Source: Lachnospiraceae bacterium (GTDB lineage Bacteria > Bacillota > Clostridia > Lachnospirales > Lachnospiraceae). Taken from it: DNA of 61,150 bases. Where the stretch lies: assembly GCA_017458765.1 (NCBI GenBank), contig JAFSZZ010000110.1:1-61150 (forward strand), read 5' to 3'. Below, one piece after another: positions 25,901 to 52,331 of this stretch (its first letter is position 1; each line of letters begins with the position of its first letter). The position numbers and the translations under genes were made by a program. The notes beneath the pieces are model-generated. The model was not told the DNA's origin and did not search any database. It was given only the letters and a program-made list of their open reading frames with translations.

Positions 25901-26914
25901 GACGGGAAGTATATGATCCCTGGCCATTGAATAAAACAGCCTGCTTAAAGCATACATATTACCTATCAGACTGGTTATTACAAGAGAAAGCAGTGCAAGC
26001 ATAAGAATATCCACGCCCGCAGCCCCCAGATAGGCATGAGCAGCATAAAAAGGAGGAAGTGCTTCAAGCCCCGAAAGGCTGCCTATGTCATTTATATATT
26101 CAACCCAGCTCCCATATCTTTCGGGATATGCCGTTACCGAAAGAAGAGTCACCATTATATATATAACGGTTGTTACCATTACGGAGACGACCAAAAGACC
26201 GGGTATCTTCTTCCTGTCAAAAGACATTTCCTCGGTCGCATGTGAAATATTCTCGAATCCTATAAAGGCCCAGGGAGATATGACAGCTATTCCCAGTATC
26301 TGGGATATGGCGGACGTGTCATTCAGCAGCAAAGGTGCGGATGATACATTCCTGCCGAAGGATGCCGCCAGAAAACAGGCGGCTATACCGAAGGTGAAGG
26401 TGGCAGCCATGATGATCATCGCAAGATTAATGGCCCGTTTAAGGCGTATAATGAGACAGCCTATAAGAAGCAGTGAAAATATGGACAGCAGTGCTTCACC
26501 CATATATATATCATATCCGAACAGGGTATACAGCCTGCCTTTTTTGAAAACATCTCCCATGAAGATCCTTGCGAACAGAGGAAGTGACGTTGCGTTGGCC
26601 CAGAGGATGGCAAGATAGGTCATTGCAAGGAACCACGCGGTCAGGAATCCGTAGTCGAACCCGAAAACATCGCGGGAATAAGCATATGCGCCTCCGGCCT
26701 CCGGAAAGGCACGCATTAAAACAGCATAATTACGGCTTATTATGAGCATTACGGCTGCACCGCAGATAAGACCCAGCACGCTTCCGAGAGGACCCGCCTG
26801 GGCAAGATATGTATTACAGGTTACAACCAGCGATCCCCATCCGACGCTGGTTCCGATCGAAAACGCCAATGCTCCTTTAAGCGATAAGTGTTTATCAAGG
26901 CTCTGTCTGCTCAT
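22958..26914 (-). CDS. Multidomain c-di-GMP protein: APC-type amino-acid permease + GGDEF + REC + degenerate GGDEF + EAL
   Basis: 12-TM APC-like N-terminus; RIGGDEF; REC (VLIVDDE...MMDLIMPRMNG...LTAD); degenerate GADTF; EAL (EALVRW, EITES, DDFGTGYSS, EGVETEEQ). Start at ATG 26914 with an AAAGGAG RBS; the ORF track start is 26974. Confidence 0.85.
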   Translation of the reverse strand: MSRQSLDKHLSLKGALAFSIGTSVGWGSLVVTCNTYLAQAGPLGSVLGLICGAAVMLIISRNYAVLMRAFPEAGGAYAYSRDVFGFDYGFLTAWFLAMTYLAILWANATSLPLFARIFMGDVFKKGRLYTLFGYDIYMGEALLSIFSLLLIGCLIIRLKRAINLAMIIMAATFTFGIAACFLAASFGRNVSSAPLLLNDTSAISQILGIAVISPWAFIGFENISHATEEMSFDRKKIPGLLVVSVMVTTVIYIMVTLLSVTAYPERYGSWVEYINDIGSLSGLEALPPFYAAHAYLGAAGVDILMLALLSLVITSLIGNMYALSRLFYSMARDHILPVRMAELNHNNIPANAIRFVVLFSILIPFTGRTAIGWIVDVTTIGATLVYAVVSAAAMKVCHQNEDKKGRCLGLAGLVFMILFEAYFLIPNFVSETTVAKETFLLFIAWSVLGFVSFRLVLRKDNERRFGSSVVVWIVLLSLVLFVSFVWMRQTMLSSDAKIKTEVRDYYETGEMKEDDEARVEFVENRLDEQGRETTRTMLIAMGMFGFVLLIMLTNHRYMNRRFMESELRANTDTMTGLKNKHAFIEREKELDAHIRDGLVRDFALVVCDVNGLKQINDTLGHKAGDEWIINAGKMIGEIFQHSPVFRIGGDEFAAILTGRDYNMRSELMRLLHDHSVDHIENGGVVVSGGISDFIHGEDEDLHTVFVRADELMYEEKMLLKNLGASSRDDADAAEDDGENEDSLELMNSLMEEKTIIDLRRSVLIVDDEMINLEILGNSLRSGYDILYALDGIEALEQIREHGDNLALIMMDLIMPRMNGVELIGRLKEDPALKNIPFIVLTADQRAEVECLQLGAADFIPKPYPAAEIIRARVDKCIELSEGRSIIHSTERDGLTNLFNIDYFIRYVHLFDHHYPDTAMDAVVVDVNRFHMINERYGKDYGDEILKNIGENVRELVRQLKGVGCRQGADTFLIYVPHRDDYNGVLEALSEGLGHIDETEDNDRNVTLRLGIYYDADKTIDIERRFDRAKMAADNIRGNYAASIGEYDSVMHEDILFKERLLEDFKNSLGDMQFTTFFQPKFDIRPDVPLLKSAEALVRWDHPEFGIISPGLFIPLLEEHGLIYELDHYVWDETAAYIRYCKDTFGFSVPVSVNVSRIDMLRSDLNEVFDRLLHKYDLTPADLLLEITESAYTGDSDQVITMVNRFRDAGFGIEMDDFGTGYSSLGMLSKLPIDALKMDMSFVHNAFSENRDMRMIELIIDIAEHLKVPVIAEGVETEEQYLTLKEMGCDIIQGYYFSRPVSKEEFSRFVTERSKVNGS

Positions 26915-27082
26915 ATATGCTCCTTTAAATAAAAGATAACTACCCGGGAGTCGCGATGTCACATTTGAACACAAATGTACCGTCCCAGGCAGTTATCATT
27001 ATAACATAAATTAGAATTAAAAAATATAGTTATGACTCCTGAATCAAAGACATGCATAACCTCAGTTGATCATACAGCCCTG

Positions 27083-28789: not shown

Positions 28790-30544
28790 TTACTCTACAT
28801 CCTTAAGAGCCTCCAGGTCTTCCTCTCCCGTTCTTATCTTGATGACTTTCTCTACAGGATATACGAAGATCTTACCGTCGCCGATATGACCGGTGTAGAG
28901 AGCTTTCTTGGCTGCGTCGATAACATCCTTGATCGGAACATTACCTATGACAACCTCAACCTTAACCTTCGGGGTAAGGGTTGCATCAACCTCAACTCCA
29001 CGGTATTTCGCACCGCCGCCCTTCTGGACGCCGCAGCCCATGACCTGAGTCACCGTCATGCCTGTTATGCCGGCTTCGTTGAGCATCTTCTTAAGCACAT
29101 CGTATCTTGACAGCTTCGCAATGATAACGACCTTGTTCATTCCGGTATCGATGAACGGCTGTGTTACAACAGGAACTGCAGCGTTGATCTTCGCGGGCGT
29201 TGCCTGATCGTACTCACCGACACCAAGATCTGTGTTCTCGTTTACTTCCATAGTCATCGTGTTTGCTATATCCATGATCGCAAAGCCCGAATAAGCCGAA
29301 TCAAGGCCGTGCTCCGTACTGTCAAGACCCTGGATCTCTTCCTCCTCAGATACCCTGAGTCCTATGGTCTTTTTGATGATCGTGTAAGCAATGATTATGG
29401 TAACAACAGTCCAGACAATGGTAACAGCCATTCCGCCGAGCTGCTTGATGAGCTGTCCTGCTCCTCCGCCGTAGAAGAGACCTTCTTCAATACCTGCCAC
29501 TGCAAAGCCGGGCGCTGATGATGTTGCAAAAAGACCTACCGCTACCGTACCCCAGATACCATTCATCATATGTACCGCAACAGCACCTACCGGGTCGTCA
29601 ACGTGTACAACATTATCAGTAAACCATACACCGAATACTACTAAAAGACCGCCTACAAGACCTATGATCGCCGCTCCTGCACAGTCGGTAACATCACACG
29701 GTGCCGTGATGGCCACAAGACCTGCAAGTGAAGCGTTCAGACACATTGAAACATCGGGCTTGCCATATTTGATCCAGGTAAAGATCATACAGGTTACGGT
29801 TGCCACTGCGGGAGCCACCGTTGTTGTAAGGAAGACGGAACCCAAAGTGGGAATATCCGTTGCTGCAGCTCCGTTGAAGCCGTACCATCCAAACCAGAGA
29901 ATGAAAACACCAAGTGCGGCCACTACAAGGTTATGTCCCGGAAAAGCGTTGACTTTTACTATTTTTCCTGATTTATCCTTTGTGAATTTACCGATACGGG
30001 GACCTAACATCCATGCGCCGATCAGGGCACAGATACCGCCTACCATATGAATACAGTTACTGCCTGCGTAATCGTGGAAGCCCCACTGTGCCAGGAAGCC
30101 GCCGCCCCAGGTCCAGTGAGCCTCGATCGGATAGATGATCGCAGAGATCACTGCCGAATACACACAGTATGCGGAGAACTTGGTCCTCTCAGCCATCGAA
30201 CCGGATACGATCGTTGCTGTTGTCGCACAGAACACAAGGTTAAATACGAAGGATGAATAATCGAAATCCGCGAAATTCGTAAACACATCAAAGGTAAAAC
30301 GTCCCAGGAAACCGCCAAGCATGTTCTCGCCGAGCATTATCGAAGCACCGCAGATGAACCACATAACCGTTCCTATGCAGAAGTCCATAAGGTTCTTCAT
30401 TATAATGTTTCCCGAGTTCTTAGCCCTGGTGAAGCCGGCCTCGCACATCGCAAAGCCTGCCTGCATCCAGAATACAAGCGCTGCTCCGATAAGGAACCAT
30501 ACGCCAAACACTTTCTCATCCAGAATACCCATCATTTCTTCCAT
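28790..30544 (-). CDS. amt: Ammonium transporter fused to a C-terminal PII (GlnK/GlnB) domain
   Basis: 11-TM Amt core (~420 aa), a linker, then a full PII fold: MNKVVIIAKLSRYDVLKKML...GCGVQKGGGAKYRGVE (T-loop)...GDGKIFVYPVEKVIKIRTGE. Confidence 0.88.
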   Translation of the reverse strand: MEEMMGILDEKVFGVWFLIGAALVFWMQAGFAMCEAGFTRAKNSGNIIMKNLMDFCIGTVMWFICGASIMLGENMLGGFLGRFTFDVFTNFADFDYSSFVFNLVFCATTATIVSGSMAERTKFSAYCVYSAVISAIIYPIEAHWTWGGGFLAQWGFHDYAGSNCIHMVGGICALIGAWMLGPRIGKFTKDKSGKIVKVNAFPGHNLVVAALGVFILWFGWYGFNGAAATDIPTLGSVFLTTTVAPAVATVTCMIFTWIKYGKPDVSMCLNASLAGLVAITAPCDVTDCAGAAIIGLVGGLLVVFGVWFTDNVVHVDDPVGAVAVHMMNGIWGTVAVGLFATSSAPGFAVAGIEEGLFYGGGAGQLIKQLGGMAVTIVWTVVTIIIAYTIIKKTIGLRVSEEEEIQGLDSTEHGLDSAYSGFAIMDIANTMTMEVNENTDLGVGEYDQATPAKINAAVPVVTQPFIDTGMNKVVIIAKLSRYDVLKKMLNEAGITGMTVTQVMGCGVQKGGGAKYRGVEVDATLTPKVKVEVVIGNVPIKDVIDAAKKALYTGHIGDGKIFVYPVEKVIKIRTGEEDLEALKDVE

Positions 30545-30599
30545 AATATTTCTCCTCTCTTCATGTCATTTAAAGTGGTCTTAAGATATTTCATATAAT

Positions 30600-30637
30600 G
30601 ACAAAGGCGCCAACCGATCGGGTTGACGCCTTTGTCT
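30600..30637 (-). terminator. Class-2 hairpin (AGACAAAGGCGTCAACCC...GGTTGGCGCC) between glnN and amt
   Basis: 16-bp stem. The 5' 19 nt match 17/19 with the hairpin at 49753-49793. Confidence 0.55.
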
Positions 30638-30763
30638 GTTTAAATATTCATTCGCAATTCCGTGCTGCTTCGCATCACTTCCTGCTCATGTTGGGGCGGG
30701 TTAATAAACCTTTCATACTTACACAAGCAAGCTTGTGACGTTTTCAGGTTTTTAACCCCGGAA

Positions 30764-32869
30764 TTACACGTAGAACAGAATATCTTCATACTTCGGATAT
30801 GGGAGTATTCCGTCGGGAAGGTATACCTCCAGCGAATCCGCCACACTTCTTACCTGCTCCATATCCTTAAGGATCTCATCATGATAGAACCTGGCCTGTG
30901 CCAGTGAATCCTCCATACTTTCGGCCTTGTCCGTATCATCGGAAAGCTTGCCCACAAGATCGAACAGCCTGTCATATCCGTCGCTTAAGATCCTTATCAT
31001 CTTCATATCCGCCTTGCAGCCAAGATGTGAATCAAGTGCAGATTTTGCGGTTACCGATGCAGTCAGCTGATCCGCGTACTCACCGACCGCAGGCATGAAC
31101 TCTGTAAGTACCATATCCTTAAGAGTCAGGCTCTCGATATGAATAGTCTTGGAGTAATTCTCAAGCAGGATCTCATATCTTGATTCAAGCTCGCTCTCCG
31201 AGAAAATATGATGCTTTTCAAACAGAGCCTTATTCTTATCGGCAACGAAGGCCGGAAGGGCTTCCGGTGTGGATCTTAAGTTGTACAGCCCTCTCTTTTC
31301 TGCCTCCTTAACCCACTCGTCTGTATATCCGTTACCGTTGAAGATCACTCTCTCATGAGCCGTTATAGACTCTTTTACAAGCTCATGAACAGCCGACTCG
31401 ATCCCATCCTCCGGAACATCCTTAAGCTTCTCATAGAACCTTCCAAGTACTTCCGCTACCGCGGTGTTAAGGATCACATTCGGACCCGATACGGATAACG
31501 AGGATCCGAGCGATCTGAACTCGAACTTGTTACCTGTAAAGGCAAACGGTGAAGTCCTGTTCCTGTCGGTATTATCCTTTGTAAAGTGCGGCAGAACCGT
31601 AGTTCCGATGTTCATCTTTGTTGTTCCGCTCTTTTCAAAGAAGGTGTCATTTTTAATGGATTCAACCACCTTCTCAAGCTCTTCTCCGAGGAAGATCGAA
31701 ATGATGGCCGGAGGTGCCTCGTTGGCTCCCAGTCTGTGATCATTCCCGGGACTTGCAACGGATACTCTCATAAGATCGGCATATTCATCCACTGCTTCTA
31801 TTATCGCTGCCAGGAAGATAAGGAACTGTGTATTGTCGGCCGGTGTCTTGCCCGGATCAAGCAGGTTAACTCCGGTGTTTGTGATCATTGACCAGTTGTT
31901 ATGCTTACCGGAACCGTTGATACCTGCGAAGGGTTTCTCGTGGAGCAGACATACAAGGTCATGCTTCTCAGCCACTTTTTTCATTATTTCCATCGTCAGC
32001 TGGTTGTGATCGACCGCTATATTTGTCGTATCGAATACCGGAGCAAGCTCATGCTGGCAGGGTGCCACTTCATTGTGCTTGGTCTTGGCGGGAATACCGA
32101 GCTTCCACAGCTCAAGATCCAGATCATGCATATATGCGGCCACTCTGGGCTTGATCGCTCCGAAATAATGATCCTCCATCTCCTGACCCTTGGGAGGCAG
32201 AGCTCCCAGAAGTGTCCTTCCTGTAAATATCAGATCCTTACGCTGCTTATATGCTTCCTTCTCGATAAGGAAGTATTCCTGCTCGGGTCCCACCGTGGTG
32301 GATACGCCCGTAACATCTGTCTGTCCTATCTTGTTAAGTACTCTTGTAGCTTCCTTTGAAAGCGCATCCATAGATCTTAGAAGCGGTGTCTTCTTATCCA
32401 GCGCTTCACCTGTGTACGAGCAGAAGGCTGTCGGGATATACAGGGTTCCGTCCTTGATAAATGCGGGTGATGTGGGATCCCATGCCGTATAGCCTCTTGC
32501 CTCGAAGGTCGCCCTCAGTCCGCCCGAAGGGAAGCTCGAAGCATCAGGCTCGCCCTTCACGAGCTCCTTGCCGGAGAAATCCATGATGACCTCCCCGTTT
32601 CCTACGGGTGTGATGAAGCTGTCATGCTTCTCCGCCGTGAAGCCGGTCATAGGCTGGAACCAGTGAGTGTAATGTGTTGCTCCGTTCTCAACTGCCCACT
32701 CCTTCATGGCTACCGCAACCGAATTGGCCACATCAAGCTCCAGATGTGTATTATTCTCAATGGTCTTCCTCAAAGCTTTGTAAATATCCTTGGGAAGCTT
32801 GTCTCTCATGACCTTGTCATTAAATACGAGACTCCCGTACAGTTCAGGTATCCTTTGTTCTTTGTTCAT
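30764..32869 (-). CDS. glnN: Glutamine synthetase type III
   Basis: ~700 aa. The N-terminus [25 protein letters not shown] is typical of GSIII. Start at ATG 32869 with an AAAGGAGGAG RBS; the ORF track start is 32953. Confidence 0.88.
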
Positions 32870-32887
32870 GTTAGTCTCCTCCTTTTT

Positions 32888-32930
32888 GCTTTTATAAAGA
32901 AAAAGGTGCCAACTTTTCTGAGCTGACACC
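32888..32930 (-). terminator. Second hairpin plus U-tract inside the glnN leader, 20-60 nt before the start codon
   Basis: Minus strand GGTGTCAGCT-cagaaa-AGTTGGCACC then TTTTTCTTTAT. Confidence 0.5.
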
Positions 32931-32971
32931 ATTGTCTTTTGAAAACACATCATAAGGTTATCACGTTTTTA

Positions 32972-33052
32972 TAAAGAAAAATCGCCTCGGAAATATTTCC
33001 GAAGCGACCTTGCTTACATGAGAAATTATAAACTAATACGTAAATAAGTCAA
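32972..33052 (-). promoter_or_regulatory. glnN promoter plus class-1 leader module
   Basis: Minus strand TTGACT-N16-TATAAT-7nt-GTAAGC AAGGTC GCTTCGGAAATATTTCCGAGGCG-ATTTTTCTTT. Aligns without gaps to 34911-34986 and 51685-51765. Confidence 0.7.
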
Positions 33053-33111
33053 TATAGTAAAATTTTCAAATTTTTCAAGCAATTTTGAATAAATTTCGTA
33101 ATTTTACACAA

Positions 33112-34614
33112 TCATGAATATCCCATTAGCGACTCATCCACCGCCCCGGCGGCTGCCTTACCCTCACTTATTGCCCATACGACAAGTGACTGGCCGCGGT
33201 GCATGTCACCTGTAGTAAATACACGGTCACGGCTTGTAGCGTATGCGCCTTCTGCCGTAGCCACGTTGGTTCTTCCGTTTATATCCACCTTAAACGCATC
33301 GGTCACATATTTCTGCGAACCCAGGAAGCCGGCTGCGATAAGCACAAGATCAGCCTTAAGTTCACCTTCGCTTCCCTCTACCGGAACCATCTGCATGCGT
33401 CCCGTTGTCTCATCCTTCTTCGGGGCAAGCTTAACGGTCTTAACCGATGTAAGATTACCCTTCTTATCCTTTACGAATTCAGTAACAGTCGTTTGGTAAA
33501 CTCTCGGATCGGAACCGAACATGAATATGGCCTCCTCCTGACCGTAATCCGTCTTAAGGATCTTCGGCCATTCGGGCCAGGGATTGGAGACGGCACGGCT
33601 CTCGCAGGGCTTGGGCATCATCTCAAGCTGTATGACTGATGCGGCGCCCAGCCGTATCGACGTTCCGACACAGTCATTCCCCGTATCTCCACCACCTATG
33701 ACAACCACGCTCTTACCCTTAAGGCTCTTAAACGAGAAATCCTTCTTGTCGAAGATCTTCGAATAATCATATCCTTCATCGATTATATTCTTTGTAACCT
33801 CTGTAAGAAAATCAACCGCGAAATATATTCCCTTCGCATCTCTTCCGGGTACGTTTATATCCCTTGGATTGGCTGCACCGCAGGCAAGGATCACACGGTC
33901 ATATTCCTTGAGCAGTTCGTCTGCCGTTACATCATTGCCTACATCGACACCGTACTTAAAGATAATACCGCTCTCCTCCATCAGGCTTATCCTTCTGTCA
34001 ATAACACGCTTATCGAGCTTCATATTGGGTATTCCGTATCTTAACAGACCGCCTGCCCTGTCCCGTCTTTCGTATACGGTAACCAGGTGACCTCTCTTGT
34101 TGAGCCAGTATGCGGCCGACAGACCTGAAGGACCGGAGCCTATTACGGCAACCTTCTTCCCTGTACGTACTGCGGGCTTATCCGGCTTCACAAGACCGTT
34201 GGCATATGCATACTCAATTACCGTCTTCTCATTTTCCTTCGTTGATACGGGATCCGAGTGTACCGAAACCGTGCATGCAGCCTCACACAGAGCGGGACAT
34301 ACCCTCGAGGTGAACTCCGGGAAGCAGTGTGTCTTGGACAGCCGTATATATGCCTGCTCAAGGTTCCCGTGATATACATAGTCGTTTATTTCCGGTACAA
34401 GATTGTGCAGGGGACAGCCTGACGCCATTCCTGCGATCATGGTGCCCGCCTGACAGAACGGAACCCCGCATGCCATACATCTTGCGCCCTGAAGCATCTG
34501 TTCCTTTGTAGGGAGCAGAACGTGAAATTCATCGAAATCCTTTATTCGTACAGAGGGCTCTCTTACAGCACCCTCTTTTCTCTCATATTCCATAAATCCT
34601 GTCGGTTTACCCAT
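33112..34614 (-). CDS. gltD: Glutamate synthase small (NADPH) subunit
   Basis: N-terminal Fe-S Cys clusters and two dinucleotide folds (VAVIGSGPSGLSAA, VVVIGGGDTGNDC). Confidence 0.9.
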   Translation of the reverse strand: MGKPTGFMEYERKEGAVREPSVRIKDFDEFHVLLPTKEQMLQGARCMACGVPFCQAGTMIAGMASGCPLHNLVPEINDYVYHGNLEQAYIRLSKTHCFPEFTSRVCPALCEAACTVSVHSDPVSTKENEKTVIEYAYANGLVKPDKPAVRTGKKVAVIGSGPSGLSAAYWLNKRGHLVTVYERRDRAGGLLRYGIPNMKLDKRVIDRRISLMEESGIIFKYGVDVGNDVTADELLKEYDRVILACGAANPRDINVPGRDAKGIYFAVDFLTEVTKNIIDEGYDYSKIFDKKDFSFKSLKGKSVVVIGGGDTGNDCVGTSIRLGAASVIQLEMMPKPCESRAVSNPWPEWPKILKTDYGQEEAIFMFGSDPRVYQTTVTEFVKDKKGNLTSVKTVKLAPKKDETTGRMQMVPVEGSEGELKADLVLIAAGFLGSQKYVTDAFKVDINGRTNVATAEGAYATSRDRVFTTGDMHRGQSLVVWAISEGKAAAGAVDESLMGYS

Positions 34615-34787
34615 AATATTCCTCCTTTTGTTTGCAGTACATGTTCAGAACAGGCCGGAGTGAAGCGTAGACCCGCTTGCTGTGGATTCTTTATGGCATT
34701 ACCTGTTTTGAACAATTACTATTTGTCATAAGTCTGCGGATACCTTATTTCTGCATGCATTTCCTTGTTTGCATTAGGAAAGTCATA

Positions 34788-34819
34788 GAATAGCGAATTT
34801 CATCAGAAATTCGGTATTC
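34788..34819. repeat. 32-nt palindrome family C (gaatagcgaatttc-atca-gaaattcggtattc)
   Basis: A second copy at 42692-42723 matches at 29/32 positions. Confidence 0.8.
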
Positions 34820-34871
34820 GTACTGGACCAGGCTCTGCTGAAAGCAGAGGCGTGTCATGCGGAACGCATGA

Positions 34872-34909
34872 TTTCCGAATGCATTTCCTTGTTTGCATTC
34901 GGAAAGTCA
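34872..34909. repeat. Hairpin repeat family B copy (tttccgaatgc-12 nt-gcattcggaaa)
   Basis: Homologous to 21575-21619. A partial copy lies at 34755-34787. Confidence 0.75.
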
Positions 34910-34910
34910 T

Positions 34911-34986
34911 AAAAAAAAACGCCCCGGATATTCCGAAGCGTCTTTGCTAACAATACTAATTATATGTCACAGATGTTTAATGTCAA
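34911..34986 (-). promoter_or_regulatory. gltD promoter plus class-1 leader module (also serves as terminator of the kinase gene)
   Basis: Minus strand TTGACA-N16-TATAAT-7nt-GTTAGC AAAGAC GCTTCGGAATATCCGGGGCG-TTTTTTTTT. The -35 starts 10 nt after the kinase stop codon. Confidence 0.7.
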
Positions 34987-34995
34987 GGGCAACAT

Positions 34996-37320
34996 TTACA
35001 ATTTCATGATATTTCTGATCATATCTTCAAGTGCCCGGGCCTGAATGGGCTTTGTAAGGAATTCATCAAAGCCCTCCGAAAGATACATCTCCCGGGCTCC
35101 AAGGATAGCATTTGCAGTGAGCGCCACAACGGGAGTCTTCTTTTCACTGCCGCGGTTACGCTCTCTTTCACGATACAGTCTGAGTGTTTCGATACCGTCC
35201 ATTTCAGGCATCATATGGTCAAGGAAGATAATGTCATAATCCCTCTCTTCAGTAAGCTTAAGCATATCCTTACCGCTGTATACTTCGTCTATCGTCATTC
35301 CGGAGTTCTTTAACAGGAGCGCGAATACACGGCAGTTAACCTTGCTGTCGTCAACCACAAGTATCTTAACACCCGGAGCGTGCAGGGTTTCTCCATCTGT
35401 ATTTTTATTATCTTCTGTTTTCCTTATACTGCTGAACTCACCTATGGGGGTCGGATCGATCACTCTCTGCTTAATGGTAAAAGAGAACCTGGACCCGCTC
35501 CCGTATACGCTCGAAACCTCAAGCCCGGAGCCCATCAGGGAAAGCAGTGACCGGGTAATGCTCAGGCCCAGGCCGGTTCCTTCGATGTTGCGGTTCCTGT
35601 CTTCCTCGAACCTTTGATATTCACCAAAAAGACGGTCAAGGTCTTCGGGCTTTATCCCTATTCCCGTATCCTCGACAACGAAGGTCAGCTTTATTAATTC
35701 GTAATCCAAGTCGCCCTTAACGGAAAACCTGATACTGCCTTCATTCGTATATTTCACCGCATTGCTTAGAAGATTAACAAGTATCTGTCTTATCTTCCTC
35801 TCATCACCGGACAGCCTGACCGGAATGGAACTGTCGATATCGACATTCAGGTCGAGCTTCTTCTCACTTGCTTTAAGAGTGATCATGTTGATGCAGTCAT
35901 ATATAAGCCGGGAAGTTTCATACTCGGCATCTATAAGCTCCATCTGCCCGGCGCGTATCCTGGAAAGATCGAGAATATCGTTAACCAGGGAAAGAAGTGT
36001 TTCACCGGCACTTTTTATATCTCCCGAATAACGGCGGATTTCCGGCTCGGTGCTTTCACGCAGTATCATTGTATTCATGCCGAGCATGGTGTTTATCGGC
36101 GTACGGATCTCATGGGACATATTGGCAAGGAAACGGGCTTCTGCTTCACTGGCCATTTCGGCAGCTCGCTTATCCCTGTTGATCTTCATCAGGTCCTGAA
36201 GCGTATTGACTATTGAAATTATCAGCATGTAAATGAGTCCGACGGAAAGGAGTGTCGTATGGAACTGGTCGTTCTTCATGAAATATATGATTATCTGGCC
36301 TACTGAAGCAATTACTATTCCAAGCATGCCCATAGCAACCAGAGGGTATTCCTTAACGCGCCCGGTAAACAGGTCTTTAACCATTGTTCCTATGATTATT
36401 GCAATGGTTATGAAGCATGTTACAGCCATTGCCGTAAAGCTTTCGGAAAAATCAACCAGCCTGAAGACATGAAGGAAAAGACACACCGCACAGTCGATCA
36501 CCGCAATATATCCTGCGATAGTGTACAGTTTATGGTACTTTTCCTTCTGTATGATATCCATATAGATGATAAAGGGAATGGGTAACAGAAGCAGCGCCGC
36601 AAAGGTCATGTTGTTTATGACGGATACGGCCGGGAAAATAAGCTGGCGCACCTGGATATTGGCTACCAGCCAGACCGCTACGAGAGTTATTGCACACCCA
36701 AGGTACATAAGGGTAAGCTTGCGATGCTGAAAAATACCCACAAAGAAGCATACCACCGTACTGAGAAAGCCCAGCAGAAGAGTCAGAAACGCTACTGTTA
36801 TCTCAAGCCCGAGTTCCCTGGCAAGCGTATACCATATATCCATCCTGCTTCCCATGGTGACCGGATAGAATACGCCTGAAAATGTCGAATCGGTCACTGC
36901 TTCAACAGTGAGGTATTTACCGGCATCTCCGGGTTTTAGGTCACAGAATACATATGCGGGTGATGTGTACTTCCCGATATAGCGGGTATCCTTGGTTGAG
37001 TACTCTATCCTCAGTTCATCGCCGACATACATCTTAATATCCTGCCTGGCGGTGTGAAAACACAGGCTCTCGTTATTTACCATGTCTTCATCGATCAAAG
37101 TTCTTATGACCACCTTCTCTCCGCGTTCAACATCGAGATTGACAGGCAGTGTGATCTCGGTTACCGATCCGTCATTGTGTATCCATTCCCATACGCCGTC
37201 ATAATTCTCCTTATGGTAATCATTGTTAGGCGCGTCTTTGGGAAAGAAAATGCTGCCGATAATAAAATAACCGAATATCAGTACGAAAAAAACAGTGAAG
37301 CAGATCTTGATAGTTTTCAT
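34996..37320 (-). CDS. Hybrid sensor histidine kinase/response regulator with a 7TMR-DISM-type sensor
   Basis: Signal/TM, ~150-aa extracytoplasmic domain and 7 TM helices. H-box MSHEIRTPINTMLGM; N and G boxes (LLSNAVKYT, DTGIGI, GTGLGLSI). C-terminal REC (ILVVDDS...FLDHMMPEMDG...ALTAN). Confidence 0.85.
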   Translation of the reverse strand: MKTIKICFTVFFVLIFGYFIIGSIFFPKDAPNNDYHKENYDGVWEWIHNDGSVTEITLPVNLDVERGEKVVIRTLIDEDMVNNESLCFHTARQDIKMYVGDELRIEYSTKDTRYIGKYTSPAYVFCDLKPGDAGKYLTVEAVTDSTFSGVFYPVTMGSRMDIWYTLARELGLEITVAFLTLLLGFLSTVVCFFVGIFQHRKLTLMYLGCAITLVAVWLVANIQVRQLIFPAVSVINNMTFAALLLLPIPFIIYMDIIQKEKYHKLYTIAGYIAVIDCAVCLFLHVFRLVDFSESFTAMAVTCFITIAIIIGTMVKDLFTGRVKEYPLVAMGMLGIVIASVGQIIIYFMKNDQFHTTLLSVGLIYMLIISIVNTLQDLMKINRDKRAAEMASEAEARFLANMSHEIRTPINTMLGMNTMILRESTEPEIRRYSGDIKSAGETLLSLVNDILDLSRIRAGQMELIDAEYETSRLIYDCINMITLKASEKKLDLNVDIDSSIPVRLSGDERKIRQILVNLLSNAVKYTNEGSIRFSVKGDLDYELIKLTFVVEDTGIGIKPEDLDRLFGEYQRFEEDRNRNIEGTGLGLSITRSLLSLMGSGLEVSSVYGSGSRFSFTIKQRVIDPTPIGEFSSIRKTEDNKNTDGETLHAPGVKILVVDDSKVNCRVFALLLKNSGMTIDEVYSGKDMLKLTEERDYDIIFLDHMMPEMDGIETLRLYRERERNRGSEKKTPVVALTANAILGAREMYLSEGFDEFLTKPIQARALEDMIRNIMKL

Positions 37321-45081: not shown

Positions 45082-48000
45082 TCAGAGGATATGTGGAACA
45101 GGCTTTGGAGCCTGATTATGTGTGCTTGCGTAGAAGGCTTCGATCTGTGCTTCTTCGTAGGACATACCCTTCTCCTCGAACTGACCCGTCAGGATCATCA
45201 GCTTCCTGTAATCCTCGGGGATTATCTTCTTAAATCTGGGAAGATAAGCATCGAAATTATCGAGGATATCCTTAGCCTTAAGCGAACCGGTATAATTGTA
45301 ATGCTTCGTGAGCATTCCCTTTAATTCATTACAGTCATTCTTATTCTCAACCGGCTCCATGAGCACAAGATCCCTGTTAAGGTTTCTGTAAAGTGTGTTG
45401 TGTTCATCAAGGACATAGGCAACACCGCCGCTCATTCCGGCTGCAAAGTTCTTGCCGGTGGGACCTATGACAACCACGCGTCCTCCTGTCATGTATTCAC
45501 AGCCGTGCTCTCCCACACCCTCAACTACGGCATATGCGCCCGAGTTCCTGACTGCGAACCTTTCACCTGCCATTCCTTCGAAATAAGCCTCGCCCGAGGT
45601 TGCGCCATACAGTGCGACATTACCTATGATTATATTGTTCTCGGCGTCATAGCCCGCATTTTCGGGAGCACGTACTATGATCTTGCCGCCGGACAGTCCC
45701 TTGCCAATGTAATCGTTGCTGTCACCGTACAGATTAAGTGTGAGCCCCTTCGGTATAAATGCACCGAAGCTCTGCCCTCCGTGTCCGTGGCAGTCAAGTA
45801 CGATCGTATCTTCATTAAGTCCTTCGGGCACCTGTCTTGTTATCTCGCTTCCGAGCAGAGTGCCGAAGGTCCTGTCCGTATTTGTAAGCGTGATCTTCTC
45901 GCGGCATACCTTTCCCGATCTGATCGCATCCATGACAGATCTCTTATTTAACAGACAGCTCTCATCCTTGGTCTTTTCAAGCTCAAAATCAAATACCCTG
46001 GCAGGATCGAATACACGTGCATCCGATTCTTCATACTCAAGGATCCCTGAAATATCTATCTTCGCGGCATTGCCGCCAAGCCCGTCCTTACGTTTAAGCA
46101 GGTCTGTACGTCCGGCCATTTCGGATATCGTATGCACTCCGAGTCTTGCCATATATTCCCTTAATTCCTGTGCGATAAAGCGCATGAAGTTCTCCACATA
46201 TTCCGCCTTGCCGGTAAACCGCTTGCGAAGCTCCGGGTTCTGCGTTGCCACTCCGAAGGGACAGGTATCAAGATTACATACCCTCATCATCGCACAGCCG
46301 AGAGTCACAAGAGGTGCAGTTGCAAAGCCGAATTCCTCAGCTCCAAGAAGAGCCGCGATCGCCACATCCCTTCCGCTCATCAGCTTGCCGTCAGTCTCTA
46401 TTACCACACGGTCCCTTAATCCGTTACGGATAAGCGTCTTGTGGGTTTCTGCAAGTCCCAGTTCCCAGGGAAGTCCCGCATTATGTATGGAGCTTATCGG
46501 AGCTGCACCCGTACCGCCGTCGTATCCGGATATAAGGATAACCTGAGCTCCTGCCTTGGCAACGCCGGCAGCTATGGTTCCCACTCCCGCTTCCGATACC
46601 AGCTTGACGCTGATACGTGCGTTTTTATTTGAATTCTTAAGGTCGTAGATAAGCTGTGCCAGATCCTCGATAGAGTATATGTCATGATGAGGCGGCGGTG
46701 ATATAAGGCTTACGCCGGGTGTTGAATGCCTGGTCTTGGCGATCCAGGGATATACCTTGCCGGCCGGAAGATGACCGCCTTCACCGGGCTTGGCTCCCTG
46801 TGCCATCTTGATCTGTATTTCCTTTGCACTTACAAGATATTTGCTTGTAACACCGAACCTTCCGCTGGCCACCTGCTTGATCGCAGAGCTGCGGTTTTCA
46901 GTGCCGGATCCGGAACCTGAATAGCCCGCCTTATTTCCTTCGCCTTTAAACATACCCGACGATTCCATACGCTCGTCGCTCTCACCGCCCTCGCCGCTGT
47001 TTGACTTTCCATGAAGCCGGTTCATTGCAACGGCAAGCGCCTCATGAGCCTCCTCGGATATGGAACCGTATGACATTGCGCCTGTCTTAAACCTTGTAAC
47101 GATGCTGTCTACGCTCTCGACCTCGGAAATATCTATTCCCTGTTCCGGATAATTAAAATCAATGATACTGCGTATATAGCCTGTCCGCTCACTGTCCACC
47201 ATTTCGGTATATTTCCTGAACTTGCCGTAATCGCCCTCTCTGGTGGCACTCTGGAGCATATGGATGGTCTGCGGATTGTATCTGTGCTCTTCACCCTGCG
47301 AACGCATCTTGTGGCGTCCTATCGAATCGGGGGTCAGATCGGCTTCAAGTCCCAGCGGATCGAACGCCTTCGAATGCTGCTCATCCGCTGCTGTTGCGAT
47401 ATCATCAAGAGAAATACCGCCTATCCTGCTGACCGTACCGGTGAAATATCTGTCTATTACCTTCTGCGATATACCGAGGCATTCGAAGATCTTGGAGCCC
47501 TGATAGGACTGCACTGTTGAGATTCCCATCTTCGATGCTATCTTGATTATGCCCCCGAGGACCGCCCTGTCATAGTCATCAACCGCTGCGTAGTAATCCT
47601 TATCAAGACTTCCTTCATCTATAAGTTCGCCGATCACCGCATGGGCAAGATACGGATTGACAGCACTCGCACCGTAGCCTAACAGCAGTGCGAAATGATG
47701 TACTTCCCTTGGCTCGCCGGATTCAAGCACCAGTGACATGGCAGTGCACTTTTTGGTATCGACCAGATGCTTATGGACTGCAGCAACAGCAAGAAGCGAA
47801 GGGATCGCGACATGATTCTCATCAACACCCCTGTCGGAAAGTATGAGTATATTGGCACCCTCGCGGTATACCTTGTCAACCTCGACGAAAAGATGATCAA
47901 TAACACGAGTTATCGGAGTGCTCTTGTAATACAGTATGGATACCCTGGCCACCTTGAAGCCGGGCCTGTTCATCTTTTCTATCTTGAGAAGGTCAAGATC

Positions 48001-49719
48001 GGTAAGGATGGGATTCTCGACCTTCAGCATATGGCAGTTATGAGCCTGCTCCTCAAGAAGATTACCGTTCTTGCCAAGGTAGACAGTCGTTGAGGTTACT
48101 ATCTTCTCCCTGGCAGCATCGATAGGCGGATTGGTAACCTGGGCAAACATCTGCTTGAAATAGTTAAACAACGGTTGATATTGTTTGGAGAGTACCGCTA
48201 TCGGCGTATCGATACCCATAGCTCCTATGTTTTCGGCACCTGTAAGTGCCATGGTCTCGATGCTTTCCCTGCATTCTTCATAGGTATACCCGAAGGCCTT
48301 CTTAAGCTGCTGCTTCTCTCTGTCTGTATAAGAAGTGACTTTGCAGTTAGGGATTTTCAGCTCATGCAGGGTGAGCAGGTTGGAATCAAGCCATTCACCG
48401 TATGGCTCCTTATTGGCGTAGTATTCCTTGAGTTCTTCATCGGACACTATTCTGCCCTGTACGGTGTCAATCAGCAGCATTTTGCCGGGATGCAGGCGTT
48501 CCTTCTTTAGGATGTGTTCCTCCGGTAATTCCAGAACTCCCACCTCCGATGAAAGTATCAGCCTGTCGTCATCCATTATGTAATATCTTGAGGGTCTCAG
48601 ACCGTTCCTGTCAAGGATCGCACCCATTACATCACCGTCCGAGAACAGTATCGATGCCGGACCGTCCCAGGGCTCCATCATGGTTGCGTAATACTGATAG
48701 AAATCACGCACCTCCTGGGATATCGTATCGTTGTGCGCCCATGGCTCGGGAACCATCATCATGGCGGCCAGCGGAAGGTCGATCCCACTCATAGACAGGA
48801 ATTCGAGCGTATTGTCAAACATTGCCGAATCGGAACCCCACGCCGGGATAACGGGTAATACCTTGGTCATATCCTCTGAACTGAACATACCGGTATACAT
48901 GGTTTCCTCACGGGCAAGCATCTTGTCAACGTTACCCTTGATTGTATTTATCTCCCCGTTATGCACCATCATCCTGTTGGGATGCGCCTTTTCCCAGCTG
49001 GGGGTCGTATTGGTGGAGAAACGTGAGTGTACCATGGCAATCGCCGACTTATATGAAGCATCGTCAAGATCCGTAAAGAAGGTACGGAGCTGACCGACAA
49101 GGAACATTCCCTTGTACACGATCGTACGGCATGACAGTGAGCATACGTAGGTATTGTCGGTACTCTGCTCGAATACACGTCTTATAACATACAGCTTTCT
49201 GTCGAAATCCTTATCTGTTTCCGTTTCTTCGGGACGCCCCACGAAGCCCTGATAAATAGCCGGCATACAGTCACGCGCCCGCTTGCCGAGTACTTTCTCA
49301 TCAACTTTAACTTTACGCCATCCAAGAAAGTCACAGCCCTCTTTTCTTACTATCACCTCAAACATCTTCATGGCGCGCTTCCTTAACAGCTCATCAACCG
49401 GAAAGAAGAACATACCTACGCCGTAACCGCGCTTCTTTTGAAGCTCTATACCAAGCTCCTTACATTCCTTTACAAAGAATTCATGGGGGATACGTGTGAG
49501 TATGCCTACACCGTCGCCCGTCTCACCGGACGCATCCTTTCCGGCGCGGTGTTCAAGATGTTCAACTATCTTTAATGCATCCGATACCACGGCGTGATCG
49601 TCCTTACCGTTTATGTTCACGATAGCTCCGATACCGCAGTTCTCATGTTCATCAAGCATAGCATGGTTCCGGATATCCTCCGGGTTATCATTTAATAAAT
49701 CCTTTGTCTGATCTGCCAT
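45082..49719 (-). CDS. gltB: Glutamate synthase large subunit
   Basis: Ntn amidotransferase domain (HENCGIGAIV), a central FMN/3Fe-4S domain and a C-terminal GXGXG beta-helix; 1545 aa; AAGGAGGA RBS. Confidence 0.93.
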   Translation of the reverse strand: MADQTKDLLNDNPEDIRNHAMLDEHENCGIGAIVNINGKDDHAVVSDALKIVEHLEHRAGKDASGETGDGVGILTRIPHEFFVKECKELGIELQKKRGYGVGMFFFPVDELLRKRAMKMFEVIVRKEGCDFLGWRKVKVDEKVLGKRARDCMPAIYQGFVGRPEETETDKDFDRKLYVIRRVFEQSTDNTYVCSLSCRTIVYKGMFLVGQLRTFFTDLDDASYKSAIAMVHSRFSTNTTPSWEKAHPNRMMVHNGEINTIKGNVDKMLAREETMYTGMFSSEDMTKVLPVIPAWGSDSAMFDNTLEFLSMSGIDLPLAAMMMVPEPWAHNDTISQEVRDFYQYYATMMEPWDGPASILFSDGDVMGAILDRNGLRPSRYYIMDDDRLILSSEVGVLELPEEHILKKERLHPGKMLLIDTVQGRIVSDEELKEYYANKEPYGEWLDSNLLTLHELKIPNCKVTSYTDREKQQLKKAFGYTYEECRESIETMALTGAENIGAMGIDTPIAVLSKQYQPLFNYFKQMFAQVTNPPIDAAREKIVTSTTVYLGKNGNLLEEQAHNCHMLKVENPILTDLDLLKIEKMNRPGFKVARVSILYYKSTPITRVIDHLFVEVDKVYREGANILILSDRGVDENHVAIPSLLAVAAVHKHLVDTKKCTAMSLVLESGEPREVHHFALLLGYGASAVNPYLAHAVIGELIDEGSLDKDYYAAVDDYDRAVLGGIIKIASKMGISTVQSYQGSKIFECLGISQKVIDRYFTGTVSRIGGISLDDIATAADEQHSKAFDPLGLEADLTPDSIGRHKMRSQGEEHRYNPQTIHMLQSATREGDYGKFRKYTEMVDSERTGYIRSIIDFNYPEQGIDISEVESVDSIVTRFKTGAMSYGSISEEAHEALAVAMNRLHGKSNSGEGGESDERMESSGMFKGEGNKAGYSGSGSGTENRSSAIKQVASGRFGVTSKYLVSAKEIQIKMAQGAKPGEGGHLPAGKVYPWIAKTRHSTPGVSLISPPPHHDIYSIEDLAQLIYDLKNSNKNARISVKLVSEAGVGTIAAGVAKAGAQVILISGYDGGTGAAPISSIHNAGLPWELGLAETHKTLIRNGLRDRVVIETDGKLMSGRDVAIAALLGAEEFGFATAPLVTLGCAMMRVCNLDTCPFGVATQNPELRKRFTGKAEYVENFMRFIAQELREYMARLGVHTISEMAGRTDLLKRKDGLGGNAAKIDISGILEYEESDARVFDPARVFDFELEKTKDESCLLNKRSVMDAIRSGKVCREKITLTNTDRTFGTLLGSEITRQVPEGLNEDTIVLDCHGHGGQSFGAFIPKGLTLNLYGDSNDYIGKGLSGGKIIVRAPENAGYDAENNIIIGNVALYGATSGEAYFEGMAGERFAVRNSGAYAVVEGVGEHGCEYMTGGRVVVIGPTGKNFAAGMSGGVAYVLDEHNTLYRNLNRDLVLMEPVENKNDCNELKGMLTKHYNYTGSLKAKDILDNFDAYLPRFKKIIPEDYRKLMILTGQFEEKGMSYEEAQIEAFYASTHNQAPKPVPHIL

Positions 49720-49752
49720 TTATATTTCCTCCTTATGACGGTTTACAGCCTC

Positions 49753-49793
49753 AAAAAAGCGCCAATCCTGCAATAGGATTGACGCCGTTGTCT
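49753..49793 (-). terminator. Class-2 hairpin plus U-tract between asnB and gltB
   Basis: Minus strand AGACAACGGCGTCAATCC-tattgca-GGATTGGCGC-TTTTTTG. Homologous to 30600-30637. Confidence 0.65.
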
Positions 49794-49854
49794 TAAAATA
49801 AAAAAGAAAATTCACTTTTGCATCCACTGTTTCAACGCTTGACCGGTGCATGGC

Positions 49855-51585
49855 TCATTCGCCGGAAGCACCGTAGTTACTCAGAACCCTCGCGGACGGG
49901 TCGTTCACGTCACAGCCTTCCCATTCTTTATTCGGCATCCAGAAATCCTTGACCATCTGCGACTGCCCCGGGTAATATTTCTCGAATATCTCGCGGTACA
50001 GAAGCGACTCCTTGGTAAACGGTCTTGCATGATCATATTTTTTGATCAGCTCTTCATATTCTTTATCAGAATATTTGCCTTCTGCATATTCCTTCAGGTG
50101 ATCCACCATCGAATGACCCACCGCATCGGAGAATGCCGCCTTCTCCCTCATCAGGATATCATACGGAAGGAAATCACCCTCGAAAGCATGCCTTAACAGG
50201 TACTTTCCCTTGTTATAAACATTCATCTTCTTGGCAGGATCTATACTCATGACATATTTAACAAAGTCAAGATCGCCAAACGGTACCCTCGCCTCCAGTG
50301 AGTTGACCGATATACATCTGTCGGCTCGGAGTACATCATACATATGTATCTCATGGATACGCTTGACAGCTTCCTTCTGGAATTCCTCAGGCGAGGGTGC
50401 AAAATCGGTGTACTTATATCCGAACAGTTCATCCGAGATTTCGCCTGTAAGGAGTACCCTGATATCGGTCTGTTCGTGTATAGCCTTGCAGACAAGGTAC
50501 ATTCCCATGCTGGCTCTTATGGTCGTGATATCGTAGGTTCCAAGAAGCTTAATAACGTTCGGAAGCTCGCGGATAACGTCTTCCTTCGTGATTATTACCT
50601 CTGTGTGATCACTGCCCAGATAGTCAGCTACCTGCTTCGCATATTTAAGATCGATGGCATCTGTGTTCATACCGATCGCGAAGGTCTTTATCGGCCTGTC
50701 TGACAGCTTGGAAGCTACCGCACATACAAGCGAGCTGTCAAGTCCTCCGCTTAACAGGAAGCCTACCGGAGCATCGGAATCAAGCCTCTTCTCAATACCC
50801 TTGACCAGTCTGTCATGAATGTTCCTGCATACTGTATCAAGGTCATCATCCACTACCTTATCGACCCTTGTTATATCGTTGTAGCAGACGAACTCTCCGT
50901 CTTTATAATAATGGCCCGGCGGGAACGGAAAGATCTCATCCACCAGTCCGACAAGGTTCTTTGCCTCGGATGCGAATACGATTTCCTTGTCCTTGGCTGC
51001 CTTATACTCTTCATCGGAAGTTTTACCTGTTGTACCTGATTTATATGCAATTCTTCCTTCACCTTTTATCCTTTCATCGGTTATTCCTTCATCGGCTCTT
51101 ATCCTTTCGCCGGTTATTCCTTCATCGGCTGTTATCCCGGACTTCACATGCCCATAATACAGCGGCCGTATGCCGATCGGGTCACGCGCGGCTATGAATG
51201 ATCTCTCTTTCCCGTCATATATTATGCATGCGAACTCGGCATCCAGCTTCTCAAACATATCCGTACCGTACTGCTCATACATGGGCAACAGCAGCTCACA
51301 GTCGGAATCACTCTTAAATGTATAGCCCTTTTTCTTAAGCTCCTCCTTTATGGGACGAAAGCCATATATTTCACCGTTGCAGACAAGGAAATTACTGTTA
51401 AGGTTAAACGGCTGCATACCCTCCTCGCTAAGTCCCATTATCGACAGACGCTCAAATCCCATGATTCCGCCCGGAATATCAATTATCCTCTGCATATCCG
51501 GCCCCCTCGATATCGTCCTGTCGAAATGTTCCCTGAATTCATCCTTTGTAAGGCTTTTGCCAAGATAACCCATTATGGAACACAT
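49855..51585 (-). CDS. asnB: Asparagine synthase (glutamine-hydrolysing) with a repeat-encoded insert
   Basis: MCSIMGY (Cys2 nucleophile) and the PP-loop FLLSGGLDSS. Insert ...GITADEGITGERIRADEGITDERIKGEG... AAAGGAGG RBS. Confidence 0.9.
   Translation of the reverse strand: MCSIMGYLGKSLTKDEFREHFDRTISRGPDMQRIIDIPGGIMGFERLSIMGLSEEGMQPFNLNSNFLVCNGEIYGFRPIKEELKKKGYTFKSDSDCELLLPMYEQYGTDMFEKLDAEFACIIYDGKERSFIAARDPIGIRPLYYGHVKSGITADEGITGERIRADEGITDERIKGEGRIAYKSGTTGKTSDEEYKAAKDKEIVFASEAKNLVGLVDEIFPFPPGHYYKDGEFVCYNDITRVDKVVDDDLDTVCRNIHDRLVKGIEKRLDSDAPVGFLLSGGLDSSLVCAVASKLSDRPIKTFAIGMNTDAIDLKYAKQVADYLGSDHTEVIITKEDVIRELPNVIKLLGTYDITTIRASMGMYLVCKAIHEQTDIRVLLTGEISDELFGYKYTDFAPSPEEFQKEAVKRIHEIHMYDVLRADRCISVNSLEARVPFGDLDFVKYVMSIDPAKKMNVYNKGKYLLRHAFEGDFLPYDILMREKAAFSDAVGHSMVDHLKEYAEGKYSDKEYEELIKKYDHARPFTKESLLYREIFEKYYPGQSQMVKDFWMPNKEWEGCDVNDPSARVLSNYGASGE
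51068..51141. repeat. 2.2 x 33-bp in-frame tandem repeat inside asnB
   Basis: tatcctttcatcggttattccttcatcggctct / tatcctttcgccggttattccttcatcggctgt / tatcccgg. Confidence 0.9.
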
Positions 51586-51684: not shown

Positions 51685-51765
51685 CAAAAGAAGAAGGCGC
51701 CTCGACTTACGTCGAAGCGCCCTCGCTTACAGTAAATATTATATAAACAGTTTTCCGGTTGTCAA
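51685..51765 (-). promoter_or_regulatory. asnB promoter plus class-1 leader module
   Basis: Minus strand TTGACA-N16-TATAAT-7nt-GTAAGC GAGGGC GCTTCGACGTAAGTCGAGGCGCC-TTCTTCTTTTG. Confidence 0.7.
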
Positions 51766-51856
51766 GATTTTTTTTACAAGCTTTTTTACAAGCTTTTATA
51801 CAAGCTTATTTACAAGCTTTTTTCATAAGCTATTTTTCATAATCTTTTTACAAGCC
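51766..51856. repeat. 7 x ~12-bp tandem T-tract repeat (TTTTTTACAAGC) abutting the asnB -35
   Basis: TACAAGC/CATAAGC cores at 51775, 51787, 51799, 51811, 51824, 51838 and 51849. Confidence 0.85.
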
Positions 51857-52127: not shown

Positions 52128-52285
52128 ATAGTATGATTAAAGGGTCAAAAGCCTGTCAACACCACAAGCTTGCGACGCGTAGCTAGTCCTTTAGGGCTTG
52201 ATGGTGGGTAGGATTGTGAGAGTGCGAAGCACGGAACAATCCGTTAATCAAAAAAAGTATAGTTTTGACCCCTAAATCATAGTAT
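52128..52285. mobile_element. 158-bp MITE-like element with ~23-bp imperfect terminal inverted repeats
   Basis: atagtatgattaaagggtcaaaa ... ttttgacccctaaatcatagtat (20/23). The internal 27-mer tgcgacgcgtagctagtcctttagggc is shared (1 mismatch, inverted) with 14485-14511. Confidence 0.5.
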
Positions 52286-52331
52286 TGAAAAGAAATCACC
52301 CATTACAAAGAAACCATTCATTACAAAGACA

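Follow-up and report, generated by a model that had tools for sequence, protein, structure and literature searches.

How are nitrogen-assimilation genes expressed when the promoter in front of them fires straight into a transcription terminator? The question is raised by a 61,150-nt stretch of DNA from a gut/rumen Lachnospiraceae bacterium (assembly GCA_017458765.1, contig JAFSZZ010000110.1; the whole stretch is referred to as the window), in which glnN, gltD and asnB-gltB are each preceded by a copy of the same minus-strand promoter-plus-leader module. The leader combines a 14-nt hairpin, closed by a loop of six nucleotides (hexaloop), with an intrinsic terminator. The modules are probably protein-dependent attenuators of the ANTAR (NitR) type, in a one-hairpin variant that abuts the promoter. 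This reading draws on the anatomy of the modules, the mutual exclusivity and energetics of their folds, conservation and covariation, the content of the regulon, and the linkage to an ANTAR gene. No paper describing the module was found in the literature searched, and, to our knowledge, the nitrogen control of abundant gut and rumen Firmicutes is largely uncharacterised.

An earlier note on this DNA, made from the sequence alone, had reported three gap-free minus-strand copies, and these are found, letter for letter as it wrote them, at 32972..33052 (glnN), 34911..34986 (gltD) and 51685..51765 (asnB-gltB). The glnN module has a -35 box TTGACT at 33052-33047 and a -10 box TATAAT at 33030-33025, followed by the antiterminator hairpin AAGC-AAGGUC-GCUU (33015-33002), a terminator stem spanning approximately 33011-32978 and a U-tract running to 32973. 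The corresponding elements of the gltD module are TTGACA at 34986-34981, the -10 box at 34964-34959, the hairpin (U)AGC-AAAGAC-GCU(U) at 34949-34936, the terminator at 34945-34915 and nine U residues at 34919-34911; in the asnB-gltB module they are the -35 box at 51765-51760, the -10 box at 51743-51738, the hairpin AAGC-GAGGGC-GCUU at 51728-51715, a terminator reaching 51696 and a U-rich tail reaching 51685. All three copies share the 16-nt spacer and the 7 nt between TATAAT and GTWAGC. The 53-nt pattern TTGACW-N16-TATAAT-N7-GTWAGC-N3-G-N-CGCTTCG matches the window three times, at the three modules, and has no match in 100 dinucleotide-preserving shuffles; the short core GTWAGCNNNGNCGCTTCG finds the same three sites with no mismatches. 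A consensus scan of the 28-36 kb region ranks the two module promoters there first, with scores of 12/12 and 11/12, and likewise puts the module hairpins at the top of the terminator-like sites. Folding energies of the terminator hairpins are -18.1, -22.6 and -27.8 kcal/mol for the three modules (z-scores between -5.4 and -6.1).

The genes downstream of the modules carry the Pfam domains expected from the names given to them in the earlier note. All of them lie on the minus strand. Type III glutamine synthetase (GSIII), encoded by glnN at 30764..32869 and identified by its homologues as well, is followed by an ammonium transporter fused to P-II (amt-PII, 28790..30544); the small subunit of glutamate synthase is encoded by gltD at 33112..34614; and the asnB-gltB operon occupies 45082..51585, with asnB at 51585-49855 and gltB at 49719-45082.

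The leader can adopt two folds, and these are confirmed to be mutually exclusive: AAGC-N6-GCUU pairing sequesters bases that the terminator stem needs. The short hairpin, proposed by the earlier note for all three copies, holds in glnN and asnB, but in gltD it has only 3 bp (UAGC/GCUU, with an outer U·U). In the terminator stem, the first U of CGCUUCG forms a U·G wobble in 3/3 copies, as read directly. The covariation that the note saw in this stem does not appear within the window, where the copies differ by one-sided changes of A-U against G·U; compensatory pairs do emerge once relatives are added. On its own, the 14-nt hairpin contributes -0.7 to -2.0 kcal/mol, whereas the terminator reaches -18 to -29 kcal/mol. 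Because the hairpin is so much weaker, the default outcome would be termination, and a stabilising factor would be needed for read-through. With the hairpin enforced, the residual terminator stem is reduced to 4-6 bp and lies 7-9 nt away from the U-tract.

The window belongs to Lachnospiraceae, as judged from GlnN homologues, and the module is widespread among its relatives. In relatives whose GlnN is 93%, 86% and 77% identical, it precedes glnN, gltB and a purF-like amidotransferase gene, and internal variants precede amt-PII. A pattern scan with TATAAT-N9-13-AGCRARGNCGCTTYGR over one genome per species yields at least 117 loci, about 100 of which are complete modules with -35 box, terminator and U-tract, almost all in Clostridia. 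The hosts among the matches listed include Lachnospiraceae, Blautia, Butyrivibrio, Lachnospira, Eisenbergiella, Acetatifactor, Ruminococcus and Faecalibacterium, as well as Gemmiger, Oscillospiraceae, Clostridium disporicum and Anaerovoracaceae. About ten matches in unrelated phyla have no terminator, and their number is close to that expected by chance. A covariance model was then built from nine copies and searched at E<=0.001 against 89 sources, namely 88 fetched loci and the window (numbers such as L017 below denote individual loci); near-identical metagenome-assembled genomes (MAGs; L075, L087) were covered as 8-kb pieces. The model gives 102 matches, with -35 and -10 boxes immediately upstream in 96 of them. 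The first downstream open reading frame (ORF) is glnN in 34 cases, purF-like in 25, amt-PII in 12, asnB in 4, gltD in 3 and gltB in 2, with single instances of glnA, pyrG and an ANTAR gene. The earlier note had expected a covariance-model scan of relatives to hit the leaders of glnA, gltBD, asnB and amt, as indeed it does, and its proposal of an attenuator dedicated to a nitrogen regulon agrees with the 83 of 102 matches that precede nitrogen, amidotransferase or ANTAR genes. Other downstream genes include carA, an NAD-synthetase-like CN hydrolase gene, two genes of diaminopimelate enzymes and purC. Since the downstream genes are non-random, the module is, judging from gene content, the mark of a nitrogen and glutamine-amidotransferase regulon.

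This distribution bears on a rival explanation of the hairpins, that they are ordinary terminators of the upstream genes (a hybrid histidine kinase gene and gltD) following embedded promoters, with the shared sequence due to a repeat family or common ancestry. The module hairpins are indeed the sole terminator-like sites after the stops of the kinase gene (34996) and gltD (33112); because they would also end the upstream genes, control of read-through would couple neighbouring transcription units. However, about 570 nt separate the -35 box of the asnB module (51765) from the next gene upstream on its strand, a symporter gene with its stop at 52332. A mere terminator is likewise at odds with the roughly 100 copies, among the matches listed, that stand specifically before nitrogen genes in many genera, and with a 5' flank and hexaloop that are conserved independently of the needs of the terminator and an alternative pairing that is enriched. 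We consider this explanation extremely improbable.

Two groups of copies depart from the common pattern of hosts or neighbours. Faecalibacterium-type copies precede a gene for a LivJ-type binding protein at 15 loci of the pattern scan, among the matches listed; several of the contigs concerned bear the names Barnesiella, Bacteroides or Oxalobacter, probably through mis-binning. Three loci labelled Bacteroides or Bacteroidaceae (L025, L076, L104) carry a complete module, with AAGC-AAAGAC-GCUU and terminator behind an ATTTACA-type -35 box, followed by about 900 nt without an ORF and then by a RidA-like gene.

The conserved positions of the module indicate whether it is read as RNA or as DNA. The terminator is paired in 99.7% of the cells of the alignment of 102 copies and has three compensatory pairs. 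The hexaloop has A at position 1 in 87% of the copies (89/102, with G in the other 13), A at position 2 in 99%, and G4 and C6 in 100%; most of the copies were first found with a pattern that fixes R1 and G4, and those found without this constraint agree. The canonical AAGC/GCUU stem is nearly invariant and hence uninformative for covariation, so that support for the pairing comes from non-canonical copies. Copies outside the search pattern keep the loop on stems ACGC/GCGU, AGAC/GUCU, CCAC/GUGG, UGAC/GUCA, AAAC/GUUU, GCAG/CUGC and CAGC/GCUG, and further stems include G·U pairs (GAGC/GCUU, UUCGU/GCGAA, AAGGC/GCUUU, GGAC/GUCU). With pattern-selected copies masked beforehand, the loop motif has a flanking stem of at least 4 bp in 32/239 instances on the 5' shoulder of a terminator-like hairpin, against 414/17178 elsewhere (odds ratio 6.3, p=1.7e-14). 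The Faecalibacterium copies pit the same hairpin against a terminator made from its 5' stem and loop, instead of from the loop and 3' stem; this different overlap shows independently that competition between hairpin and terminator is a selected feature. The variant (L012, L036, L040, L053, L055, L056 and others) keeps AAGC-AAGGUC-GCUU, and its terminator pairs AAGCAAGGUC with GACCUUGCUU.

The earlier note had also offered an AAGC-N6-GCTT operator at +1, that is, a palindromic DNA site for a dimeric repressor or activator beside a constant terminator. The element does abut a promoter in 96/102 copies, and AAGC/GCTT forms a perfect inverted repeat in most of them. A DNA operator, however, would not account for a spacer that is conserved and asymmetric between half-sites that vary in a compensatory way, nor for half-site variants that are G·U pairs and thus mismatches in DNA. 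Internal copies sit in operon spacers without a promoter, and wherever it occurs the element shares bases with a terminator arm, in either of two topologies including the Faecalibacterium form. Moreover, the genes would stay silent behind a constitutive terminator of -20 kcal/mol placed 45 nt past a consensus promoter, unless something overrode it. The operator was therefore rejected on its conserved asymmetric loop and covarying half-sites, and is a highly improbable alternative. The conserved asymmetric loop, the covariation of the stem with wobbles, the fixed orientation and the promoter-less internal copies fit an RNA hairpin that is read through its loop.

These internal copies bring the window total to six units over three transcription units, the internal three being weaker and having GAC/GUC stems; within the window, the covariance model matches the three strong copies and none of the weaker ones. 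In the glnN leader, a second attenuator unit at 32896..32936 on the minus strand forms the hairpin GAC-AAUGGU-GUC (32936-32925), which overlaps a terminator GGUGUCA..UGGCACC (32930-32905) followed by U5CUUU; its homologue, GAC-AATGGC-GTC, occupies the same place in the relative L017. The asnB-gltB spacer holds a unit at 49753..49792 (minus strand), where the hairpin GAC-AACGGC-GUC (49792-49781) overlaps a strong terminator, GGCGUCAAUCCU..AGGAUUGGCGC (49786-49759), ending in U6. The unit in the glnN/amt-PII spacer (30600..30636, minus strand) has its hairpin GAC-AAAGGC-GUC (30636-30625) embedded in a 16-bp hairpin that extends to 30600 and has a weak U-tract, UUUGUCAUUAU; equivalents are found in the glnN-amt spacers of L001, L003, L004, L017 and L021. 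This last spacer is also filled by one of two borderline matches to the orphan RNA family Clostridiales-1, at 30624-30766 on the minus strand, the 3' end of which overlaps the hexaloop unit; the other match lies at 52134-52250 on the plus strand. The two score 48.2 and 49.6 bits against a threshold of 48 bits, and Clostridiales-1 has no match in the loci of 11 relatives.

The architecture of the units resembles that of the RNA targets of ANTAR proteins. There, A1 and G4 mark the hexaloop of hairpin P2, the 3' stem of which shares bases with the terminator (PMC3369936, PMC3369931). In the module, too, a hairpin with a short stem presents A1 and G4 in its 6-nt loop (the loops of the six window units are AAGGUC, AAAGAC, GAGGGC, AAUGGU, AAAGGC and AACGGC), and the 3' stem of its hairpin lies within the 5' arm of an intrinsic terminator, with exclusive folds that recur in the Faecalibacterium copies. 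Other Firmicutes are known to have ANTAR regulons that cover glutamate synthase, glutamine synthetase, P-II and ammonium transporters (PMC3369931), and here likewise the genes belong to nitrogen metabolism, with several copies per regulon, some of them inside operons. Finally, an ANTAR-domain regulator is encoded in the regulon, as seen here in relatives. The view of the earlier note that the module matches no known system is thus revised by the A1/G4 signature, the P2-like overlap with the terminator and the module-controlled pair of glnA and an ANTAR gene in relatives.

That pair consists of the gene for type I glutamine synthetase (GSI), glnA, and, directly after it in every locus retrieved (L001, L057, L125, L126, L127-129, L130, L131-133), a gene whose 180-aa product carries an ANTAR domain at its C-terminus (Pfam E=6e-14). 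The operon takes the forms purF-like-pyrG-Impact-glnA-ANTAR, asnB-pyrG-carAB-glnA-ANTAR and glnA-ANTAR, and it is preceded by the module in 6/6 lineages with a close homologue of the ANTAR protein, at scores from 37.7 bits (L057) to 55.9 bits (L001). In two other lineages (L093, L096), the module stands directly before a gene for a 194-aa ANTAR protein. A 75-kb MAG contig, JAILLY010000114, the GlnN of which is 86% identical to that of the window, has modules before glnN, gltB and asnB-pyrG-carAB-glnA-ANTAR. The predicted structure of the 180-aa protein (predicted local distance difference test, pLDDT, of 86) has its best matches in Rv1626, EutV (with and without RNA) and AmiR, and its N-terminal domain has the receiver fold. 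The family alignment lacks an acidic pocket, and strand 3 ends without an Asp (IIVVM-x-K; VIICG-x-R), for which reason the N-terminal domain can be read as a pseudo-receiver, as in AmiR. Of the residues by which EutV contacts RNA, the protein keeps K143, K149, E160 and the essential M172.

Several points weigh against an ANTAR switch. First, the module has one hexaloop hairpin only. The characterised antiterminators EutV, NasR, AmiR and NasT all use two hexaloops (PMC3369931, PMC3369936, PMC8934654, PMC10783516), and antitermination by EutV in vitro needs both P1 and a fixed linker (PMC8934654). The earlier note had judged the module not to be a canonical two-hairpin ANTAR target, correctly so, as P1 is absent from promoter-proximal and internal copies alike. 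In the promoter-proximal copies, 9-13 nt separate the -10 box from the AGC in the 5' half of the stem, and 8-12 nt from the first base of the stem; an RNA start that we infer to be only 0-5 nt before the hairpin leaves no space for P1. The only P1-like matches of at least 3 bp, two weak ones, both belong to promoter-proximal copies, where they fall on the -35 or -10 region. The promoter-less internal copies do have RNA upstream of them, yet no A..G.. hexaloop was found in the preceding 70 nt. Second, A1 is reported to be essential in NasR and EutV targets, while the module tolerates G1, present in 13% of copies including asnB. Third, the conservation of G4-N5-C6 could in part reflect pairing in the terminator instead of contact with a protein. 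Fourth, the linked protein has changed other contacts of EutV: Y164, which stacks on G4, is replaced by H (H or Y in the family), and the remaining changes are R168Q, R175G and R177S. Fifth, no module was found in a distant lineage with glnA-ANTAR (L127-129). Lastly, a Pfam search finds no ANTAR gene among window ORFs of at least 100 aa from 8662 to the end, nor has the hybrid histidine kinase upstream of gltD an ANTAR domain; since none appears among the scanned ORFs of the 61-kb window, we infer the presence of the gene in this genome from the relatives.

Some of these points would equally suit an attenuator worked by another trans-acting factor, such as a different RNA-binding protein, a factor linked to P-II or glutamine synthetase, or a small RNA reading AARGNC, with the ANTAR genes as mere members of the regulon. 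The lack of an ANTAR gene among the scanned window ORFs, the missing P1 and the unkept contact residues all leave space for such a factor, as do A2 and C6, which are conserved beyond the A1/G4 rule. On the other hand, an A1/G4 hexaloop over a terminator is a specific ANTAR signature (PMC3369936), the ANTAR protein is the only regulator that recurs in module-controlled operons, at 8 loci in different lineages, and the loci examined contain no further recurrent RNA-binding regulator. A factor of another kind is accordingly unlikely, and a protein of the ANTAR type is the probable agent.

An ANTAR-type switch would operate as follows. A near-consensus promoter of the sigma-A type would start the RNA 0-5 nt before the 14-nt hairpin, which has a 4-bp AAGC/GCUU stem and an R-A-N-G-N-C hexaloop. 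By default, the 3' half of the hairpin and loop bases 4-6 would pair with downstream sequence into the intrinsic terminator, and transcription would stop after about 45 nt. When nitrogen is limiting, a dimeric protein made of a pseudo-receiver and an ANTAR domain might clamp the nascent hexaloop hairpin, and by withholding the base of the terminator stem would let RNA polymerase read through into glnN, gltD or asnB-gltB. The weaker GAC/GUC copies, one of them in the glnN leader and the others in the glnN-amt and asnB-gltB spacers, may repeat the decision within operons. The regulator would be controlled by the adjacent GlnA or another partner instead of by phosphorylation.

A broader claim is that a single 14-nt hairpin at the 5' end suffices for ANTAR antitermination, that the pseudo-receiver regulator is set by GSI GlnA as a glutamine-sensing 'trigger enzyme', and that this is the main nitrogen control of the dominant gut and rumen Clostridia (Lachnospiraceae, Blautia, Faecalibacterium, Ruminococcus); we advance it tentatively, as somewhat more apt to fail than to hold. 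The module itself would define a nitrogen-assimilation regulon for abundant gut and rumen Firmicutes, with glnN, amt-PII, gltBD, asnB, the purF-like amidotransferase gene, pyrG, carAB and glnA among its members. A EutV dimer contacts a single hexaloop, and the authors of that work left open the role of sites with one hexaloop (PMC8934654). The module looks like a natural answer, with at least about a hundred one-hairpin attenuators, in each of which the protein would have to act while only about 30 nt are transcribed. At about 80 bp for promoter and switch, it is also a compact unit for reporters and tests of mechanism.

The window also holds further repeated elements. Directly 5' of the -35 box of the asnB module, 51770-51855 consists of seven tandem 12-nt units (AAGCTTGTAAAA on the minus strand), which could represent phased A-tracts, a UP-like element or a binding array. 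In the 300-nt gltD leader, 3' of the attenuator, an element of about 40 nt (ATGACTTTCC-G/T-AATGCAAACAAGGAAATGCAT...) occurs twice on the minus strand, at 34909-34870 and 34786-34747, and a hairpin is possible in each copy. An 18-nt tandem repeat of 2.9 copies at 52289-52340 covers the stop of the sodium:dicarboxylate symporter gene (52332-52334) and extends beyond it. Adjoining the nitrogen cluster, 22958-26974 on the minus strand encodes an unusual 1338-aa fusion of an amino-acid permease with GGDEF, receiver and EAL domains.

Among known systems, those that the earlier note had set aside remain so. The GlnR/TnrA box TGTNAN7TNACA matches the window at 310, 22052 and 41079, none of them near the promoters of nitrogen genes. 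No Rfam family matches the modules, which applies to the glutamine riboswitch and likewise to the T-box: Rfam 15 gives no match on them at the gathering score, nor at E<=1 over 30400-35200, nor in the loci of 11 relatives. The lack of an Rfam match also distinguishes the module from canonical ANTAR targets, as do its conserved A2 and C6 and the inclusion of loop bases 4-6 in the terminator stem. A 2012 search for dual hairpins, in the three Lachnospiraceae genomes that it covered (Butyrivibrio, Roseburia and Eubacterium eligens), had only isolated hits near hypothetical proteins and listed none at nitrogen genes. The ribonucleic antiterminator (RAT) of BglG and LicT is similar in being a single protein-stabilised hairpin over the 5' arm of a terminator; RAT, however, is about 29 nt long with internal loops, is bound by a CAT domain and has no hexaloop signature, and no regulator of the CAT/PRD type is among the module-linked genes in the loci examined.

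The closest likenesses are with ANTAR regulators. AmiR of Pseudomonas aeruginosa, one of the fold matches, combines a pseudo-receiver, a coiled coil and an ANTAR domain without a phospho-acceptor pocket. The regulator considered here shares this architecture, and by analogy it is likely controlled by a partner protein, not by phosphorylation. The partner of AmiR is AmiC, whereas the adjacent GSI GlnA is a candidate for this role, and the AmiR target has been described with two hairpins. NitR of Clostridium saccharobutylicum (glnA-nitR, gltAB; Stutz et al. 2007, cited in PMC6316151) is an ANTAR protein reported to induce glutamine synthetase and glutamate synthase (GS/GOGAT) by antitermination under nitrogen limitation. 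The likeness to NitR concerns gene order and gene content: a small ANTAR gene lies immediately downstream of GSI glnA, here in relatives only, the putative targets include GS/GOGAT genes, and the host belongs to Clostridia. The module differs in that its main putative targets are, besides gltBD, the GSIII gene glnN, amt-PII, asnB and the purF-like amidotransferase gene, and in that its hosts are Lachnospiraceae and Oscillospiraceae, not Clostridium sensu stricto.

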